From Minisyncoccia bacterium (GTDB taxonomy: Bacteria > Patescibacteriota > Minisyncoccia > Phycocordibacterales > UBA9973), in the NCBI GenBank assembly GCA_049287305.1, contig JBAQFO010000012.1, positions 89,768-153,767 of the forward strand: a stretch of DNA of 64,000 nt. The letters run 5' to 3'. Positions within the stretch are counted from its first letter, which is position 1. Each line of letters begins with the position of its first letter. The notes under the pieces are model-generated. The model made no database searches. It saw only the letters and a program-made list of their open reading frames with translations, and was not told where the DNA came from. Of the stretch, positions 1,729 through 51,926 are shown one piece after another. The position numbers were made by a program, and so were the translations under genes.

Positions 1729-1734
1729 ACTTTT

Positions 1735-1954
1735 ACAGGCGTTCGAGGGGAGATCACCCCTTCGCCCCGCGAAGCGGGGCAGGCTTCGGGAAGAATTAAG
1801 TAGAACCCGACGGGCAAGCCCGTTATAGCCGTAATGAGAAACCCCGCTCGAAGCGGGTAAAAACAAAGGTGGTACCACGAGCAAAGAAACTCGTCCTTGT
1901 TCAGCAATTCAGTCAGTCTTTTGAATTGTTGTCCGAGGACGAGTTTTTTATTTT
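1735..1954 (+). promoter_or_regulatory. T-box riboswitch-like leader with intrinsic terminator, upstream of ileS
   Basis: AAAGGTGGTACCACGAG at 1865-1881 matches the T-box consensus AGGGTGGNACCGCG at 12 of 14 positions, including the UGGU bulge that pairs with tRNA ACCA. A terminator immediately downstream has arms AAACTCGTCC (1887-1896) and GGACGAGTTT (1937-1946), an inner helix CAATTC/GAATTG and a TTTTTTATTTT tract. GATCA in an upstream hairpin would give an AUC specifier followed by A. Confidence 0.5.
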
Positions 1955-2035: not shown

Positions 2036-2296
2036 ATGGACAAAAAAGAAAAAACCATAAAGTTTCTTGGAACGCTTGGCACAACCATAGCTATACTTAT
2101 GTTCGTTTCGCTTCTTGAAATCGCCCGAGCAAACATAAGAGGCGAGAGTCATATATTCATACAGCCGATTATGGTTACAATAAATTGTTTTACTTGGTCA
2201 TTGTATGCTTATCTTAAAAAAGAAAAGTTCGTATTTTGGGCAAATTTCCCAGGAGTCCTACTTGGAATTATTACAATAATAACAGCTTTTATATAA
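2036..2296 (+). CDS. small three-helix membrane protein with SemiSWEET-like topology
   Basis: 86 aa with three hydrophobic segments and Trp and Asn at SemiSWEET-like positions (FTWSLYAY, FWANFPG), but no PQ motif. The stop lies 2 nt before the ileS ATG. Confidence 0.35.
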   Translation: MDKKEKTIKFLGTLGTTIAILMFVSLLEIARANIRGESHIFIQPIMVTINCFTWSLYAYLKKEKFVFWANFPGVLLGIITIITAFI

Positions 2297-2298
2297 AT

Positions 2299-5200
2299 AT
2301 GAGTGAAGAAACAAAAAAAATCATAGAAAAATCTGACGCAGCCTTCCGCGAAGAGAAGGTTTTGGAATTTTGGAAAGATAATAAAATTTTCAACAAGACG
2401 CTGGAAGCAAGTGCCGGCAAGAAAGAATTTATTTTTTACGACGGTCCGCCTACTGCTAACGGCATGCCGGGGATTCACCACCTGATTCCGCAATCTTTTA
2501 AGGATGCTATTCCGCGATATAAAACAATGCGCGAGTTCCATGTCCGCAGAAAGGGGGGCTGGGATACTCACGGCCTTCCCGTTGAACTCTTGGTGGAAAA
2601 AGAACTGGGATTGAAATCAAAAAAAGAAATTGAGAGTTACGGTATTGCCGCCTTCAACCAAAAATGCAAAGAAAGTGTCTGGAAGCACGTGGATGTCTGG
2701 TATAAATACCGCGACCGAGTCGGATACTGGGTGGACAAGGATAATCCATACGTTACTTACCACAACGAATTCATTGAGTCGCTGTGGAGTGTGGTGAAAA
2801 AAATAAACGAACGCGGACTACTTTATAAAGATTATAAAGTAGTGCCATGGTGTCCGAGGTGCGGGACGGCGCTGTCTTCACATGAGCTTGCCCAAGGATA
2901 TGAGGACGTAAAAGATTTATCGGTGACGGCAAAATTCAAAGTTGTCGGACAAAACAATACTTATATCCTGGCATGGACGACGACTCCATGGACGCTTCCA
3001 GGGAATGTGGCACTCGCTGTTGGAGAAAATATTGATTATGTAAAGGTGAAAGTAGGAGCCGAGCTTTATATTTTAGCCAAAGCCCGACTTTCTATAATAA
3101 CCGAATCTTACGAGATAGTGGAAGAGATAAAAGGCGGAGGGCTGATTGGCTTGGAATATGAACCGCTGTTCCCATATTTCAAAAATACGATTTCCGAAAA
3201 TGAAAAACCAAAACTGGAAAAAGCCTTCCGGGTGCATAAAGCAAACTTTGTAACCACGGAAGACGGCACGGGGGTAGTGCATACCGCCGTAATGTATGGA
3301 CAGGACGACTTTGTGCTCGGGAACGAAGTCGGCTTGCCGAAACATCATATGGTAGGGCTGGATGGAAAATTCCTTCCCGGGACTGGCATATTTGAAAGGC
3401 GCTTTGTAAAAGACGAGGAAGTTGCCGTAGATATAATCAAAGATTTGGCTGGACGAGGGCTTCTTTTTAAAAAAGAAAAATACGAACACTCGTATCCGCA
3501 TTGCTGGCGATGCAAAACTCCGCTCATATACTACGCGAGAGATTCTTGGTATATCAAAATGTCTGACCCGAAAATAAAAGCCGAACTCATCAGCCAAAAC
3601 AAAGAAATAAATTGGGAGCCGGCGCATACCCGCGACGGACGTTTCGGCGAATGGCTTCGGGAGATAAAAGATTGGGCAATATCACGTGAGCGATATTGGG
3701 GAACACCGCTTCCGGTGTGGTCTTGCGAAACTTGCAAGAAAACCGAAGTGCTCGGGAGCATAGAAGATATAAAATCTAAAGCAAAAAAATCCGGAAATAA
3801 ATATTTGGTAATGCGGCACGGCGGAACTAATGCCAACAAGAAAGGACTTGTAAGCTATAAAAATGAGGCAAGCGACCACCTGACGGAAGAAGGGAAAAGG
3901 CAAGTCACGGCAAGCGCGGAGAAACTAAGTAGCCAAAAAATAGATTTAATTGTGGCGTCTCCCTTTGTTCGCACTAAAGAAACAGCATTAATAGTTAAAG
4001 ACAAATTTGGCCTCGGCGAAGACCAGGTTGTTTTTGACTCGCGCTTGGCGGAATTTGACCCTGGGGATTTTGACGGCAAAGAATGGAAAGATTATCACAG
4101 ATATATTGCTAGCTCAGGGTCTGGATGGTTCAATCAAACAATCCCGGGCGGAGAATCCCTCAAGGATGTGGGGGAGAGGACGGCGTCCCTCTTATATGAG
4201 ATTGAAAATAAGTTCAGTGGAAAAAATATTCTCATTGTTACCCATGGCGGACCGGCATGGCTTTTGTTCGTTAATTCTGGGTTGTTTATACCAGGAGGCG
4301 AGGCTTATAGGATTCCAAACGGAGAATCTTTCGTAAAAGAATTTCAACAGCTAAGGAATGCCGAGGTTAGAGAGTTACCGTTCGCGCCGTTGCCCCATAA
4401 TGAAAAATACGAATTGGATTTGCACAAACCTTATATTGATGAAGTAAAAATGGTTTGTTCCTGCGGAGGAGAACTTATCCGCACCAAAGAAGTCATGGAC
4501 GTGTGGTTTGACTCTGGTGCAATGCCTTTTGCTCAGGACCACTATCCGTTTGAAAATAAAAAATGGGTGGAAGGGCCCGGGTTCCCTGCGGATTTTATCG
4601 CGGAGGCCATAGACCAGACGCGCGGATGGTTCTATACGCTACATGCCGTCGGAATTTTGATGGGGCGAGGCAAGGCATATAAAAACGTGATTTGCTTAGG
4701 TCATTTACTAGACGCCAAAGGAAAGAAAATGTCCAAGTCTCTCGGCAACGTAGTGAATCCGTGGGAAGTAATGGATAAATATGGAGTGGACACATTACGC
4801 CTGTGGATGTATTCCATAAACCAGCCAGGGGAGTCAAAGAATTTTGACGAGAAAACGGTGGCGCTTCTCTCTCAGCAAGTTTTCGGACTGCTTTACAATG
4901 TGCTGGCCTTTTACGAACTTTACCGAGACAAAAGCTACGAAGATAACTCCAGACCAAGCTCTAAAAATATTTTGGACAAATGGATTCTCACCCGTCTTTT
5001 TGAATTAAGGAATGATGTAACAGCCAACATGGATAGTTATAAATTGTTGGAACCTGTGCGAGGAATGAGAGATTTCATCGGAGACCTTTCTACTTGGTAT
5101 TTAAGGCGGTCCCGAGAAAGAATAAAGGAAGGCGACTCGGAAGCGAAGGCCACTTTATATTTTGTGTTGAAGAGTCTAGCCAAGCTGATGGCTCCGTTCG

Positions 5201-5808
5201 CCCCTTTCGCTGCGGAAGACATCTGGTTAAAACTTAGAACAGACAAAGATAAAGAAAGTGTGCATTTGGAAAATTGGCCGACCGAATCCAATATTTTAGG
5301 CATTCTAATGCGACTACCCGGACAAATGCGCACCCTGGTCTACATGGATGAAGTAAGGAAAATAGTAACCCTGGGACTTGAGGCTAGGCAGAAAACCGGG
5401 ATAAAAGTCCGCCAGCCACTTGCCTCCATCAAGGTAAAGTTCGGGAAGCTTGGAGCGGAATACTTGGAATTAATAAAAGAAGAACTGAACGTGAAAGAAA
5501 TAATCTTTGATGATTCAATTTCAGAGGAAGTATTGCTGGATATAAGAATAGACGAAGAACTGAAAGCGGAAGGAAGCTATCGCGAACTTGTGCGGGCTCT
5601 TCAGGATATGAGGAAAAAATCAGGACTTACGCCGAGCGATGTCATAGCGCTTACCATTGCAACAAACGAAGACGGGAAAGCGTTGATTGAGAAATTCCAG
5701 GCGGACATGAAGAAAACAGTTCTTGTCTCAAATATAGAATTTGCTGAAAATGACGGGGAGAAAATAGTAGTTGATGAGTTGGTTTTCAGGGTTAAGATTG
5801 AGAAATAA
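2299..5808 (+). CDS. ileS: isoleucyl-tRNA synthetase (type-2, Thermus/eukaryote-like) carrying an inserted histidine-phosphatase domain
   Basis: The HIGH-class motif PTANGMPGIHH and the KMSKS motif are both present. The CP1 editing region (TTTPWTLPGN), WGTPLP and DVWFDSG are also there. The start is ATG 2299 (MSEETKK); the track ORF from 2236 is an upstream extension. Confidence 0.93.
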   Translation: MSEETKKIIEKSDAAFREEKVLEFWKDNKIFNKTLEASAGKKEFIFYDGPPTANGMPGIHHLIPQSFKDAIPRYKTMREFHVRRKGGWDTHGLPVELLVEKELGLKSKKEIESYGIAAFNQKCKESVWKHVDVWYKYRDRVGYWVDKDNPYVTYHNEFIESLWSVVKKINERGLLYKDYKVVPWCPRCGTALSSHELAQGYEDVKDLSVTAKFKVVGQNNTYILAWTTTPWTLPGNVALAVGENIDYVKVKVGAELYILAKARLSIITESYEIVEEIKGGGLIGLEYEPLFPYFKNTISENEKPKLEKAFRVHKANFVTTEDGTGVVHTAVMYGQDDFVLGNEVGLPKHHMVGLDGKFLPGTGIFERRFVKDEEVAVDIIKDLAGRGLLFKKEKYEHSYPHCWRCKTPLIYYARDSWYIKMSDPKIKAELISQNKEINWEPAHTRDGRFGEWLREIKDWAISRERYWGTPLPVWSCETCKKTEVLGSIEDIKSKAKKSGNKYLVMRHGGTNANKKGLVSYKNEASDHLTEEGKRQVTASAEKLSSQKIDLIVASPFVRTKETALIVKDKFGLGEDQVVFDSRLAEFDPGDFDGKEWKDYHRYIASSGSGWFNQTIPGGESLKDVGERTASLLYEIENKFSGKNILIVTHGGPAWLLFVNSGLFIPGGEAYRIPNGESFVKEFQQLRNAEVRELPFAPLPHNEKYELDLHKPYIDEVKMVCSCGGELIRTKEVMDVWFDSGAMPFAQDHYPFENKKWVEGPGFPADFIAEAIDQTRGWFYTLHAVGILMGRGKAYKNVICLGHLLDAKGKKMSKSLGNVVNPWEVMDKYGVDTLRLWMYSINQPGESKNFDEKTVALLSQQVFGLLYNVLAFYELYRDKSYEDNSRPSSKNILDKWILTRLFELRNDVTANMDSYKLLEPVRGMRDFIGDLSTWYLRRSRERIKEGDSEAKATLYFVLKSLAKLMAPFAPFAAEDIWLKLRTDKDKESVHLENWPTESNILGILMRLPGQMRTLVYMDEVRKIVTLGLEARQKTGIKVRQPLASIKVKFGKLGAEYLELIKEELNVKEIIFDDSISEEVLLDIRIDEELKAEGSYRELVRALQDMRKKSGLTPSDVIALTIATNEDGKALIEKFQADMKKTVLVSNIEFAENDGEKIVVDELVFRVKIEK
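3796..4410 (+). other. in-frame histidine phosphatase (PGAM/SixA-like) domain inserted in IleRS between the WGTPLPVW...KAKKSG and LDLHKPYIDEV segments
   Basis: The catalytic RHG is at 3814-3822 (LVMRHGGTNAN). Further PGAM-type segments are LTEEGKRQ, IVASPFVRTKETA, RLAEFDPGDFDG, PGGESLKDVGER and a second His motif ILIVTHGG (His near 4243). A Thermus-type IleRS has only about 40 aa between these flanking motifs. Confidence 0.7.
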
Positions 5809-5865: not shown

Positions 5866-6063
5866 ATGGTCAATTGCGAGAGCTGTCAGATGCGGTCGCT
5901 CAAGGAATGTGAACGGTGTGCAACCAATTTCCTCATGGAAAACAAGTGCACACCGGAAGGGGCTCCTGTTCAGGTGGAGCCCTTCGACGCACGCAACCGC
6001 CTTCGGTTCGACCCGAACATGTTCGTGTCGAACCGGAAGCGTCGCCAGCTCAATCCGTCCTAA
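5866..6063 (+). CDS. small GC-rich Cys-motif protein (CESC-x9-CERC), hypothetical
   Basis: The SD GGAGG sits 7 nt before the ATG and a terminator lies downstream. Codons are strongly GC-rich compared with ileS. The region also holds a 12-bp inverted repeat, CTTCGGTTCGAC...GTCGAACCGGAAG. Confidence 0.35.
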   Translation: MVNCESCQMRSLKECERCATNFLMENKCTPEGAPVQVEPFDARNRLRFDPNMFVSNRKRRQLNPS

Positions 6064-6086: not shown

Positions 6087-6132
6087 ATCCGTCGGGAGCG
6101 CACCTTCGTTGCGCCCGACGGATTTTAATTTT
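6087..6132 (+). terminator. intrinsic terminator: ATCCGTCGGG ... CCCGACGGAT with inner GCGCA/TGCGC, then TTTAATTTT
   Basis: A perfect 10-bp outer stem plus a 5-bp inner stem, followed by a T tract. Confidence 0.7.
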
Positions 6133-17634: not shown

Positions 17635-17644
17635 AAACCTAAAC

Positions 17645-17674
17645 AAAAATCCCCCATATGGGGGATTTTTGTTT
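17645..17674 (+). terminator. intrinsic terminator: AAAAATCCCCC ATAT GGGGGATTTTT
   Basis: Perfect hairpin followed by a T-run after rpsR. Confidence 0.85.
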
Positions 17675-17814
17675 ATAGGTAAGGAATTTTTTTCTAAACT
17701 CTTTCTAGGCATACTTTTTATAATGCAATCTGTCTGGCGGTGCTCCGCCAGCGAACTGCTCGGCGCGACCGCCTGCGCAAGGCATTCTAAAAAGTAAGCC
17801 TACGACGAGTTTCG

Positions 17815-18393
17815 CTATACTCTTTCTACGTATTCTCCGGTTTCGGTATTTACGTTTACTCGATCGCCCTCCTTGATGAACATGGGGGCGTTTAGAGTTG
17901 CGCCGTTCTCAAGGGTGATGATTTTGTTTCCTCCTTTGGAGGTATCGCCTCGGACAGCGGGAGGGGCTTCTTTTACCAGGAATTCCATCTTGATAGGCAA
18001 GGTAACTTTTATTATTTTTTCTTCATCATCGTCATCCCAGACGAGGGCGACGGCATTTCCGTTCTGCTTCAAAAATTTTGAAGTATCTCCGATAAGCGCT
18101 CCGTCGAGCTTGAACCTCTTGCTCTTGTCTTCAGGGTCGCAAAACCAGAACTCTCCTTTGCTTTCGTATAAAAAAGTAATGTCCTTCTTGTTGATGTCTG
18201 CCTCATGAGCTGATTCAGAAACGTGGAAAGTGGCAGGGAAGACCTTGCCCGATATCAAGCTTTTGAGTTTGACTTGGTTCTGAGGTTTCCTTTGCTGGGT
18301 GCGGGCTACGTGGCTCTCTACGACTTCACAAGGCTCGTCGTTGTGGATAATTATTTTCTTTTCGCGAATTTCGCTGTAATCTAATTGTGACAT
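17815..18393 (-). CDS. efp: elongation factor P
   Basis: The C-terminus reads NTETGEYVERV and the KOW-like N-terminus matches EF-P. I place the start at MSQLDY, because the track ORF extends further upstream. Confidence 0.85.
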   Translation of the reverse strand: MSQLDYSEIREKKIIIHNDEPCEVVESHVARTQQRKPQNQVKLKSLISGKVFPATFHVSESAHEADINKKDITFLYESKGEFWFCDPEDKSKRFKLDGALIGDTSKFLKQNGNAVALVWDDDDEEKIIKVTLPIKMEFLVKEAPPAVRGDTSKGGNKIITLENGATLNAPMFIKEGDRVNVNTETGEYVERV

Positions 18394-18440
18394 AGGCATT
18401 ATACTATCAGAATAAACTGCATTCCGCAATAAACACCTTT

Positions 18441-18469
18441 TTGACAATTAGCACTTTTTCGTGTTAAAT
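18441..18469 (+). promoter_or_regulatory. sigma70-type promoter TTGACA-17-TTAAAT
   Basis: Read from the sequence. GAAGGAGG follows at 18477-18484 and ATG at 18490. Confidence 0.55.
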
Positions 18470-18489
18470 GCTTTTTGAAGGAGGTAGGT

Positions 18490-18777
18490 ATGACATACCT
18501 ACGGGGCGTTGAGACCTACGGGGTCGAGGATGGGAAGTACTTCAGACAGTGGAGTTTCCTCGACAAGGAGGAGAGGACGCAAGTCTTCCTCCTCGCCGCT
18601 GAGATGGAGGACGTCCACAAGCGTCAGGACGTCGTCGAGATGAACCTGCGAGAAGTCTCGGAGGTCGTTTCCGAGGGGACCCTCCAGGGGATGGTCGACG
18701 GTCTGTTCGAGAGGATGGAGCCCATTCTCAAGGCCACAGACGTCGTGCGCATCGCTGTCGGAGAAGGTCTGAAGTAG
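18490..18777 (+). CDS. small acidic protein with compositionally foreign (high GC3) coding sequence; hypothetical
   Basis: Canonical promoter, SD and ATG. Codons are almost all G/C-ending (gag, gac, gtc, ctc), unlike neighbouring efp and recA. A mirror ORF on the antisense strand is typical of GC-rich coding DNA. Confidence 0.45.
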   Translation: MTYLRGVETYGVEDGKYFRQWSFLDKEERTQVFLLAAEMEDVHKRQDVVEMNLREVSEVVSEGTLQGMVDGLFERMEPILKATDVVRIAVGEGLK

Positions 18778-18858
18778 GGGAGAAGTCACAATCGGTTGAG
18801 CTGGTGTGGACAGGGAGCTGTCGCACTAGCTCTTTGTTCTTTTACTCCAATTTTTATT

Positions 18859-51471: not shown

Positions 51472-51714
51472 ATGCTCTTGTGTGAACTTATCGTTCGGTG
51501 TGAGAAGTGCCCTCGCGGTGAAGATGGGGATCTTCAAATATGCCACCTTATACAGGTGTGGACGGGCGGCGTTGGTGTGTCCGTGGCAATCGCAACCTGT
51601 GAAAGGTGTGGCTACCAAGAGGAGTGTGATATCTCCTATCCCGCACTCGTCGCAGAGCACGAGGAACGAAGCAGTCGGGTTGTCCCGAATCCCGAATCTT
51701 CGTTCGTCATGTAG
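51472..51714 (+). CDS. small GC-rich Cys-rich protein (CEKC...C..CERCGYQEEC), hypothetical
   Basis: AGGAG 6 nt before the ATG; a downstream hairpin AGGGGC...GCCCCT is followed by a T tract. GC content is well above the window background. Confidence 0.4.
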   Translation: MLLCELIVRCEKCPRGEDGDLQICHLIQVWTGGVGVSVAIATCERCGYQEECDISYPALVAEHEERSSRVVPNPESSFVM

Positions 51715-51926
51715 TGAGGGGACAATGAAGAATCATCAGAGCCTGAGTTGTTCAGGAAAGGGGCAAAACGCAAGTTAGCCCCTTTATCATTTCCAGGCTT
51801 GCGGTTTGGACGAATTGTGATATATTACATATACCGCAGAGAAAGTAGGCACAGATAGTTTATCTGGTTAAGTCCTATTTAGTGGGTCGATATTCCTTTT
51901 GCCTATATGGTGGAATGGAAGAAAAA

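Follow-up and report, generated by a model that had tools for sequence, protein, structure and literature searches.

The window analysed here is a stretch of 64,000 nucleotides of contig JBAQFO010000012.1 (positions 89,768 to 153,767, forward strand) from the Minisyncoccia bacterium assembly GCA_049287305.1. Its EF-P and RecA sequences place it in the Nomurabacteria/Paceibacteria, within the candidate phyla radiation (CPR). Between the core genes efp and recA, the window carries a small GC-rich gene unit, hereafter "the cassette". The best overall explanation, to which a probability of about 0.62 is assigned, is that of an autonomous protein-coding accessory unit, ancient, with GC-rich third codon positions that are maintained, residing at an insertion hot spot at the Nomurabacteria recA-efp junction. 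Judging from its signals and its homologues, the cassette is very probably a real, autonomous protein-coding unit inserted at this hot spot.

Cassette layout and coding evidence

The efp-recA gap of the window spans positions 18394-18858 (465 bp), in a neighbourhood composed of rpsF-ssb-rpsR, efp, recA, and ftsK. Loci of relatives are designated below by L numbers; three of them, L082, L067, and L093, encode the homologues of the cassette protein, P0002, P0003, and P0005, respectively. The features of the cassette and of its flanks are the following:

17815-18393, minus strand: efp (EF-P, 192 aa), flanking core gene; Pfam EFP_N and Elong-fact-P_C are found on an identical product
18394-18413, minus strand: remnant of the ancestral recA-efp spacer, aligning with the whole 21-24 bp spacer of L002, L003, L009, and L011 (AGGCAATATACTAGCAGAAC)
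18441-18446, plus strand: -35 hexamer TTGACA, identical in L082 and L067, TTGATA in L093
18464-18469, plus strand: -10 hexamer TTAAAT, 17 nt past the -35 and preceded by GTG; the homologues read G(T/A)GTT(A/T)AAT at the same spacing
18477-18484, plus strand: Shine-Dalgarno (SD) sequence GAAGGAGG, 5 nt upstream of the ATG at 18490
18484-18502, plus strand: 8-bp hairpin GUAGGUAU-GAC-AUACCUAC, which buries the SD 3' end and the AUG
18490-18777, plus strand: coding sequence of 95 aa (MTYLRGVETYGVEDGKYFRQW...GEGLK) of an orphan family, with the stop TAG at 18775-18777; frame, start, and stop are kept in the four homologues
18499-18789, minus strand: antisense mirror open reading frame (ORF) of 96 aa, without SD or promoter
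18798-18843, plus strand: intrinsic terminator, with the stem GAGCUGGUGUGGACAG/CUGUCGCACUAGCUC followed by UUUGUUCUUUU, ending 15 nt short of the recA stop codon
18859-19899, minus strand: recA (346 aa), flanking core gene, convergent with the cassette

The promoter draws its weight from the conservation of its hexamers in the homologues and not from their rarity: with one mismatch allowed, they match once in the 64 kb against 1.36 matches expected, which is not above chance. The SD reads GAAGGAGG, AAGGAGG, or GAAAGGAG in the homologues, and SD-N5-ATG sites of the cassette type occur twice in the 64 kb against 0.02 expected. A regular expression joining promoter and SD matches solely the family loci, among the genome and metagenome loci of relatives then compared and the window. 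The NCBI annotation starts the ORF at a TTG (100 aa, "hypothetical protein WAV15_02930 [Minisyncoccia bacterium]"); the ATG at 18490 is a better start, since the TTG and the SD overlap and the alignment of the homologues begins at the ATG. The encoded protein is acidic, with an isoelectric point (pI) of 4.7 and 19 D+E versus 12 K+R. Downstream of the ORF, the terminator hairpin (15 bp, ~18798-18832, then TTTGTTCTTTT) has homologous counterparts, ending in ...GGCTCTCTGT(C)TTTT(T), which abut or overlap the recA stop codon in L082, L067, and L093.

The compositional step at the cassette is abrupt, and within a contig of a metagenome-assembled genome it could betray an assembly or binning chimera, in which foreign GC-rich DNA was joined to a CPR contig. 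However, both junctions are 100% identical in an independent Logan contig (L001, SRR28062869, 1454 bp), and a contig of a second NCBI assembly (GCA_049303715.1) displays the identical sequence over both of them. As the architecture was also assembled independently in three other lineages, from many samples, a chimera can practically be dismissed.

The GC content of the ORF reaches 0.59 (0.66/0.31/0.80 at codon positions 1/2/3), in a window of 39.8% GC with flanking efp and recA genes at ~42-50%, about 45%. In 300-nt windows, a comparable GC is attained by just one other stretch, 1200-1900. The GC content at third codon positions (GC3) of the long ORFs in the first 24 kb ranges from 0.28 to 0.51, and from 0.44 to 0.51 for those close to the cassette (efp 0.51, recA 0.47). 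The same protein re-coded by host codon usage gives a GC3 of 0.47 +/- 0.05 (5000 simulations) with a maximum of 0.64-0.67, leaving the observed 0.80 some 6.8 standard deviations out. The GAG:GAA ratio is 11:2, whereas host genes use GAA at 78-83%, and 10 of the 13 valine codons are GTC. Extreme translational selection was considered as the cause of this GC3 and rejected: the highly expressed host genes prefer C-ending NNY codons, yet use GAA at 83%, whereas GAG is preferred in the three family members tabulated (window, L082, and L067). The anomaly sets in with the start codon: ahead of it, 60 nt of promoter and 5' untranslated region (UTR) have a GC content of 27-33% in all four members. Furthermore, GC skew and AT skew are both positive (purine-rich plus strand) precisely across the islet, while the minus-strand genes on either side have a negative AT skew, a flip that fits a plus-strand gene.

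A sequence-only reading of this stretch had described most of these elements. The promoter TTGACA-17-TTAAAT, the SD, the ATG, the hairpin with its T-tract, and an antisense mirror ORF are all found where it placed them, and the codon and GC3 analysis bears out a codon usage foreign to the host. Its sense ORF is indeed acidic, but counts 95 and not 96 residues, and its 58-60% GC applies to the ORF, the flanks being richer than the 40% it had ascribed to them.

Comparison of the four members supports the coding nature of the sense ORF. A nucleotide alignment of the window and L082, made independently of the protein, contains one indel, of 3 nt, within the ORF portion common to both, and indels across the four homologues are in frame only. 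Identity per codon position follows the order 2 >= 1 > 3 in all six pairs (0.45/0.66/0.40 for positions 1/2/3 between the window and L082). The BLOSUM62 score per column is +1.04 in the sense frame versus at most +0.19 in the other five, a comparison made somewhat circular by an alignment built in the sense frame. SD, start, and stop have identical placement relative to the promoter and terminator in the four homologues, the SD being correctly spaced from the start and the stop lying just ahead of the terminator.

GC-rich islands in AT-rich genomes are often RNAs, and the stretch might accordingly be a structured non-coding RNA, or another non-coding element, with the ORFs on both strands as by-products. 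Both strands are open in all four homologues, and the mRNA folds better than its shuffles (z = -4.7; L082, z = -2.9; antisense strand, z = -3.4). This excess reflects mostly the terminator, the start-site hairpin, and local GC-rich stems. No Rfam match was found over the ORF (the window at gathering level, the islet at E<=10), and ARAGORN detects no tRNA or tmRNA. RNAalifold applied to the four transcripts yields a negligible consensus fold (-7.8 kcal/mol over 393 columns, with a covariation term of -0.75), the alignment being poor and the sequences highly diverged. The period-3 composition, the in-frame indels, the best similarity in the sense frame, and the conserved placement of SD, start, and stop also argue against an RNA, which is deemed very unlikely.

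A genuine gene on the opposite strand, possibly co-transcribed with recA and efp, is less credible still. The antisense ORF does lie on the strand of these two genes and remains open in L082 (113 aa), and the antisense translations of the window and L082, aligned independently, give 35 bits over 47 aa (E = 1e-8). This similarity is, however, weaker and shorter than that of the sense proteins (46 bits over 73 aa), and the ORF has neither an SD nor a credible start context. In each of the six pairs, conservation is higher at position 1 of the sense codons than at position 3, and the polarity of promoter and terminator fits the plus strand. Avoidance of TTA, CTA, and TCA codons is expected to leave mirror ORFs; the present one, which ends at the only CTA codon of the sense frame, is judged a by-product of this avoidance.

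Insertion site, homologue family, and predicted product

The closest sampled species (L002 and L003) share 92% RecA+EF-P identity with the window. In these two loci, as well as in L009 and L011, the recA stop codon is separated from the efp ATG by 21-24 bp, and the distance is similarly short in many others. Because this short spacer aligns to positions 18394-18413, the remaining ~18414-18858 (~445 bp) is inserted DNA. On the minus strand, the spacer remnant reads TG-A-TAGTAT-N7-ATG, an extended -10-like box touching the efp start codon. Throughout the clade, efp lacks an SD and a conserved TG-n-TA(G/T)(T/G)AT box is found 6-7 nt before its ATG; to judge by its sequence, this box resembles an extended -10 promoter from which a leaderless efp mRNA would be made. 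It fills nearly the whole 21-24 bp spacer and forms the boundary of all insertions. The orientation of efp also varies: it is inverted relative to recA in 37 of 142 informative loci (L004, L007, L013-L018, and others), with the order rpsR-> efp-> <-recA in place of the rpsR-> <-efp <-recA of the window. Such an inversion in about a quarter of the related loci indicates that efp was flipped during the history of the clade.

The recA-efp junction is an insertion hot spot, with the islet as one cargo among others. In the 105 loci where recA and efp are in tandem, the spacer measures at most 30 bp in 27, 31-250 bp in 47, and more than 250 bp in 31, and the long spacers carry varied, unrelated cargo. 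DUF559 endonuclease-like genes are found in the spacers of L054, L067 (4196-4570), L008, L088, L048, L056, and L037; the L067 copy matches PF04480 with E = 3e-31. Those of L054, L067, and L008 are flanked by GC-rich inverted repeats (CACCTCACCCC...CCCCTCTCC / GGAGAGGG...GGGTGAGG), and from this arrangement the DUF559 gene at this site appears to behave like a small mobile element. Other cargoes were labelled by eye from their translations: an ORF resembling a GIY-YIG nuclease in L155, ORFs resembling IS200-type (RAYT) transposases in L108, L060, and L162, and kinase-like and DksA-type zinc-finger-like ORFs elsewhere. The spacer of L149 (487 bp, GC 0.51) contains a 119-aa ORF oriented as the islet gene, with a GC3 of 0.57 and, by eye from its sequence, a DksA/TraR-type look.

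Relatives of the cassette protein were sought among 5.8 billion protein clusters and 1.84 billion representative proteins, as well as at about 160 syntenic loci. The word-indexed search of the clusters returned solely the window protein itself, and an exhaustive phmmer search of the representatives added one match, P0002 (78 aa, 40% identity, E = 7e-4; pairwise E = 4e-13). P0002 is encoded on a groundwater Nomurabacteria contig (L082, L083, L084), between efp and recA and in the same orientation. Its module consists of TTGACA-17-TTAAAT, GAAGGAGG, ATG, an ORF with a GC of 0.59 and a GC3 of 0.72, and a hairpin with a T-tract overlapping the recA stop codon. Scanning the loci of relatives yielded P0003 (L067, 4087-3791, 98 aa, GC3 0.60) and P0005 (L093, 1628-1431, 65 aa, GC3 0.66), both with the site, orientation, promoter, SD, and terminator of the window gene. 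The three homologues are 22-42% identical to the window protein. Profile searches with three and four members retrieved no further ones, nor did pattern scans of viral and metagenome contigs or tblastn searches of phage and plasmid records. For all family members, Pfam, PHROGs, NCBIfam, and PADLOC returned noise only, as did a sequence profile search of the PDB with the family, and a scan for GC3-rich intergenic mini-ORFs in 80 efp neighbourhoods of relatives gave mostly spurious frames. By these sequence comparisons, the cassette protein appears to represent a previously unnamed orphan family of small proteins confined to the recA-efp junction. The family occurs in four of roughly 100-140 sampled lineages; these four are not mutual nearest relatives, the cassette being absent from closer relatives of each.

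The start site of the cassette gene is strongly folded. Over positions -22 to +28, the window sequence has a folding energy of -11.3 kcal/mol and the homologues -9.6, -8.7, and -7.3, against -3.5 +/- 3.0 for 46 other starts of the window (minimum -10.3 kcal/mol). The SD 3' end and/or the start codon lie inside a hairpin in all four members, although stem sequences and registers differ. This recurrent predicted fold probably throttles translation from a strong promoter.

A single-sequence AlphaFold2 model of the protein, beta-rich with a predicted local distance difference test (pLDDT) score of 62, was dropped for a model based on a 3-member alignment. The latter (pLDDT 79.7, predicted template modelling score, pTM, 0.70) displays five helices (residues 14-23, 26-36, 39-48, 53-59, and 62-90). 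The product would be a small soluble all-helical protein. Foldseek found no match to this protein in the PDB or BFVD at E<=0.001. The conserved core covers roughly residues 19-75 (about 55 aa) and includes the invariant W21, L24, R29, F33, D41, T64, and L72. The N-terminal 18 residues and the C-terminal tail seem dispensable, as L093 and P0002 lack them. Family members range from 65 to 98 aa in length and from 4.6 to 10 in pI, hence no role based on charge, DNA mimicry for example, is conserved. The most economical guess is that of a small binding or regulatory adaptor and not an enzyme. The constant attachment of the gene to the 3' end of recA makes RecA itself, recombination, or local transcription the first candidates for the target of its product.

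Age, composition, and further features of the window

Synonymous divergence (pS) lies between 0.65 and 0.75 among the four cassettes and between 0.71 and 0.91 for the host recA and efp, whose synonymous sites are saturated. Nonsynonymous divergence (dN) of the cassettes is 0.6-1.4 versus 0.03-0.16 for recA and efp. The saturation of synonymous sites and the low protein identity indicate that the family is old, at least as old as the split of its hosts. GC3 is nevertheless 0.60-0.80 in the four members versus 0.40-0.45 in their flanks, and a bias that stays high in all four despite saturation is unlikely to be that of a recent import. The AT-rich promoter and UTR make a block taken from a high-GC genome unlikely. 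The GC-rich synonymous sites are thus, on balance, somewhat more probably a maintained trait of the family than a recent one; they could be kept up by selection acting on the mRNA or by GC-biased conversion, the locus being a recombining one.

The sequence-only reading had proposed a recent acquisition from a high-GC donor, possibly the host organism of an episymbiont, with donor codon usage retained. Its view of a self-contained gene with foreign codons holds, and synteny shows the unit to be an insertion, the closest relatives having the short spacer; "recent" and "high-GC donor or host organism" are not supported. A GC3 of 0.80 for 0.47 expected, the GAG:GAA ratio, and the absence of the gene from the closest sampled relatives would suit such an acquisition, that is, the pairing of atypical codon usage and absence in close relatives that is taken as a mark of horizontal gene transfer. 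A recent spread is also compatible with the L067-type cassette, nearly invariant over diverged backgrounds (see below). However, no donor homologue was found in the clusters and representatives searched, nor in phages, plasmids, and viral contigs, so that no donor lineage provides homologues closer than host divergence predicts. The sole relatives reside at the same site in other Nomurabacteria of ~40% GC and are anciently diverged. The anomaly does not extend over the whole block and shows no amelioration, the promoter and UTR being AT-rich and conserved with the family. Four independent hits on one target of 0-2 nt from a GC-rich pool would moreover be unparsimonious, and recent acquisition is considered unlikely.

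A birth de novo at the junction, from an inserted open GC-rich non-coding segment that later captured a promoter, concerns the origin of the family and is compatible with an ancient, maintained cassette. The restriction of the family to one locus and one narrow clade, with no homologue elsewhere, speaks for it, as do the short, fast-evolving sequences and their variable length and pI. No non-coding precursor is seen in the relatives examined, and the confident helical model with seven invariant core residues argues for an established fold. Four sequences cannot establish an origin, and birth de novo is regarded as improbable.

A glimpse of population diversity is provided by eleven contigs, retrieved by exact protein identity from several samples, that encode identical P0003 (the L067-type population). 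Their 297-nt ORF contains 0 variable sites, and the 550-nt module three (two upstream, one in the terminator loop). In the adjoining 600 nt of recA, differences reach 8%, fall at third positions, and show clear mosaic breakpoints, and the other flank carries differing cargo (DUF559 or another ORF). At the density of third-position differences seen in recA, an estimated ~20 synonymous differences would be expected in the P0003 ORF, and the collection contains no 90-99% identical variant of the protein. The cassette may have recently swept or spread by recombination in the L067 lineage. Alternatively, imports from cassette-less relatives, which diversify recA and cannot overwrite the cassette, would leave the latter with the diversity of the clonal frame. 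Under either reading, the recA-efp locus of L067 recombines actively. In the lineage of the window itself, all three copies are identical and show no variation.

Several points weigh against an ancient, maintained cassette as a whole. The retrieval of the L067-type contigs by exact identity and the effect of cassette-less imports both bear on the invariance just described. Values of dN/dS are unreliable for a family of four distinct members with saturated synonymous sites. An unsampled GC-rich reservoir with repeated site-specific delivery is possible, although less parsimonious, and to account for the patchy distribution of the cassette, one must invoke either numerous losses or repeated transfer. 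GC richness by itself trivially explains part of the strong folding seen in the start region and in the whole mRNA. Finally, the alignment behind the helical model is very shallow, with the same four distinct members, and the single-sequence model disagrees with it.

Taken together, the ancient accessory cassette can be pictured as follows. A unit of ~445 bp would have entered the ancestral gap of 21-24 bp that separates the recA stop codon from the efp start and its minimal promoter. As read from sequence and conservation, a sigma-70-type promoter would direct a short mRNA made of a consensus SD, a hairpin occluding the SD 3' end and the AUG, a 95-codon ORF, and a terminator set against the recA stop. 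The hairpin would limit translation, and the product would be a helical adaptor. The cassette would persist or spread by homologous recombination via its highly conserved flanks, its GC-rich synonymous sites being kept by mRNA selection or GC-biased conversion instead of being the fading signature of a donor. A broader proposal, which remains speculative and is rather doubted, is that moron-like CPR cassettes (see below) are long-lived at hot spots between conserved core genes and move or sweep by homologous recombination. Their GC3 would be actively maintained against AT bias, through selection on a compact, translationally locked mRNA or through GC-biased gene conversion, and their helical protein would modulate RecA, recombination, or local transcription.

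Unusual base composition is commonly taken as a sign of recent transfer, and the cassette would be a clean counter-example. It would imply that, within a reduced and AT-rich CPR genome, a small gene is held GC-rich by a force, either selection on synonymous sites or mRNA or biased conversion. The interval between the recA stop and the efp minimal promoter also offers a well-delimited hot spot, through which gene flow could be followed in uncultivated CPR bacteria. The practical importance of the cassette will stay limited as long as no function can be assigned to it.

Other parts of the window hold GC-rich elements as well. On the plus strand, the 700-1700 region (GC ~0.55) contains several small Cys-rich ORFs with CxxC...CxxC pairs and strong SDs, at 758-922 (54 aa), 1100-1342 (80 aa, after GGAAGGAGG), and 1483-1662 (59 aa), without a Pfam match, and these ORFs may be additional GC-rich mini-genes broadly similar in kind to the cassette. 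Similar Cys-rich mini-genes with an SD occupy gaps at 5866-6063 (plus strand, 65 aa, GC3 0.72, followed by a hairpin and T-tract at ~6088-6128) and 51473-51715 (plus strand, 80 aa). Their proteins show no relation to that of the islet and no match in Pfam. The genome thus seems to hold several GC-rich mini-gene units. Between the bidirectional rpsR terminator (17640-17675) and the efp stop codon, a GC-rich piece of ~100 nt (17700-17800) carries the hairpin CTGGCGG-TGCT-CCGCCAG with TTTTTATAAT ahead and no credible Rfam match; it may be a small RNA, an efp terminator, or a remnant.

A divergent T-box leader is found at 1733-1950 (plus strand; RF00230, 49.3 bits, E = 8e-10, below the gathering score of 93), with the motif AAAGGTGGTACCACGAG and a terminator hairpin. 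Missed by the default Rfam scan, it lies upstream of an 86-aa SemiSWEET-type ORF (2036-2296, PF03083) and of ileS (2236-5808). Finally, ~20 consecutive ORFs at 26600-49900 have a GC3 of 0.23-0.38 versus 0.44-0.51 for most ORFs in 2-24 kb, and this low-GC domain is possibly an acquired or surface-structure gene cluster.

Comparison with known systems

Small proteins acting on RecA offer a first comparison. Like RecX, DinI, and PsiB, the cassette protein is small; two of the four members are acidic, and the gene always stands at the recA 3' end. No sequence or fold similarity to any of the three was found. On visual inspection, the motif L-x-x-[DE]-[DE]-R-x-x-V-F ... [SC]-x-x-x-T-[VL]-x-x-x-V-x-x-L recalls the LPxxxRxVFxL ... 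GTVKSRL of sigma-70 region 4 and LuxR-GerE helix-turn-helix domains. This identity was rejected as unsupported, with hhalign probabilities of 1.5% and 0.1%. The compact, structured mRNA with its SD and AUG in a hairpin is reminiscent of type I toxins and other translationally locked mRNAs, but the cassette protein is predicted to be soluble and not hydrophobic, and no antisense promoter or RNA was identified.

The gene also resembles ORFans and hot-spot genes in being short, fast-evolving, taxonomically restricted, and located in a hot spot between core genes. As Daubin and Ochman reportedly observed in 2004, ORFans of bacteria, like genes of recent acquisition, are typically richer in AT than the genome that carries them. 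The cassette gene differs in this respect, being 19 points GC-richer than its genome, with a GC3 of 0.80.

In architecture, the cassette resembles phage morons, described as single ORFs with their own promoter and terminator, lying between genes that are adjacent in related phages and having a deviant composition (PMC4378225, citing Hendrix and Juhala). The cassette likewise has a putative promoter and terminator of its own around one ORF, conserved in the four homologues. It is inserted between genes that abut in relatives (21-24 bp), and is present or absent among close relatives. Its composition deviates from that of its surroundings, with a GC of 0.59 versus about 0.45 and a GC3 of 0.80 versus 0.47-0.51. 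In contrast to morons, it resides in a CPR chromosome between housekeeping genes and not in a phage or prophage, with no match of its protein in viral contigs or phage records and no PHROG. Furthermore, its anomalous composition appears ancient and conserved, and not a sign of recent arrival. From its sequence organisation, the cassette may be described as a chromosomal, moron-like accessory unit encoding an orphan family of small proteins.

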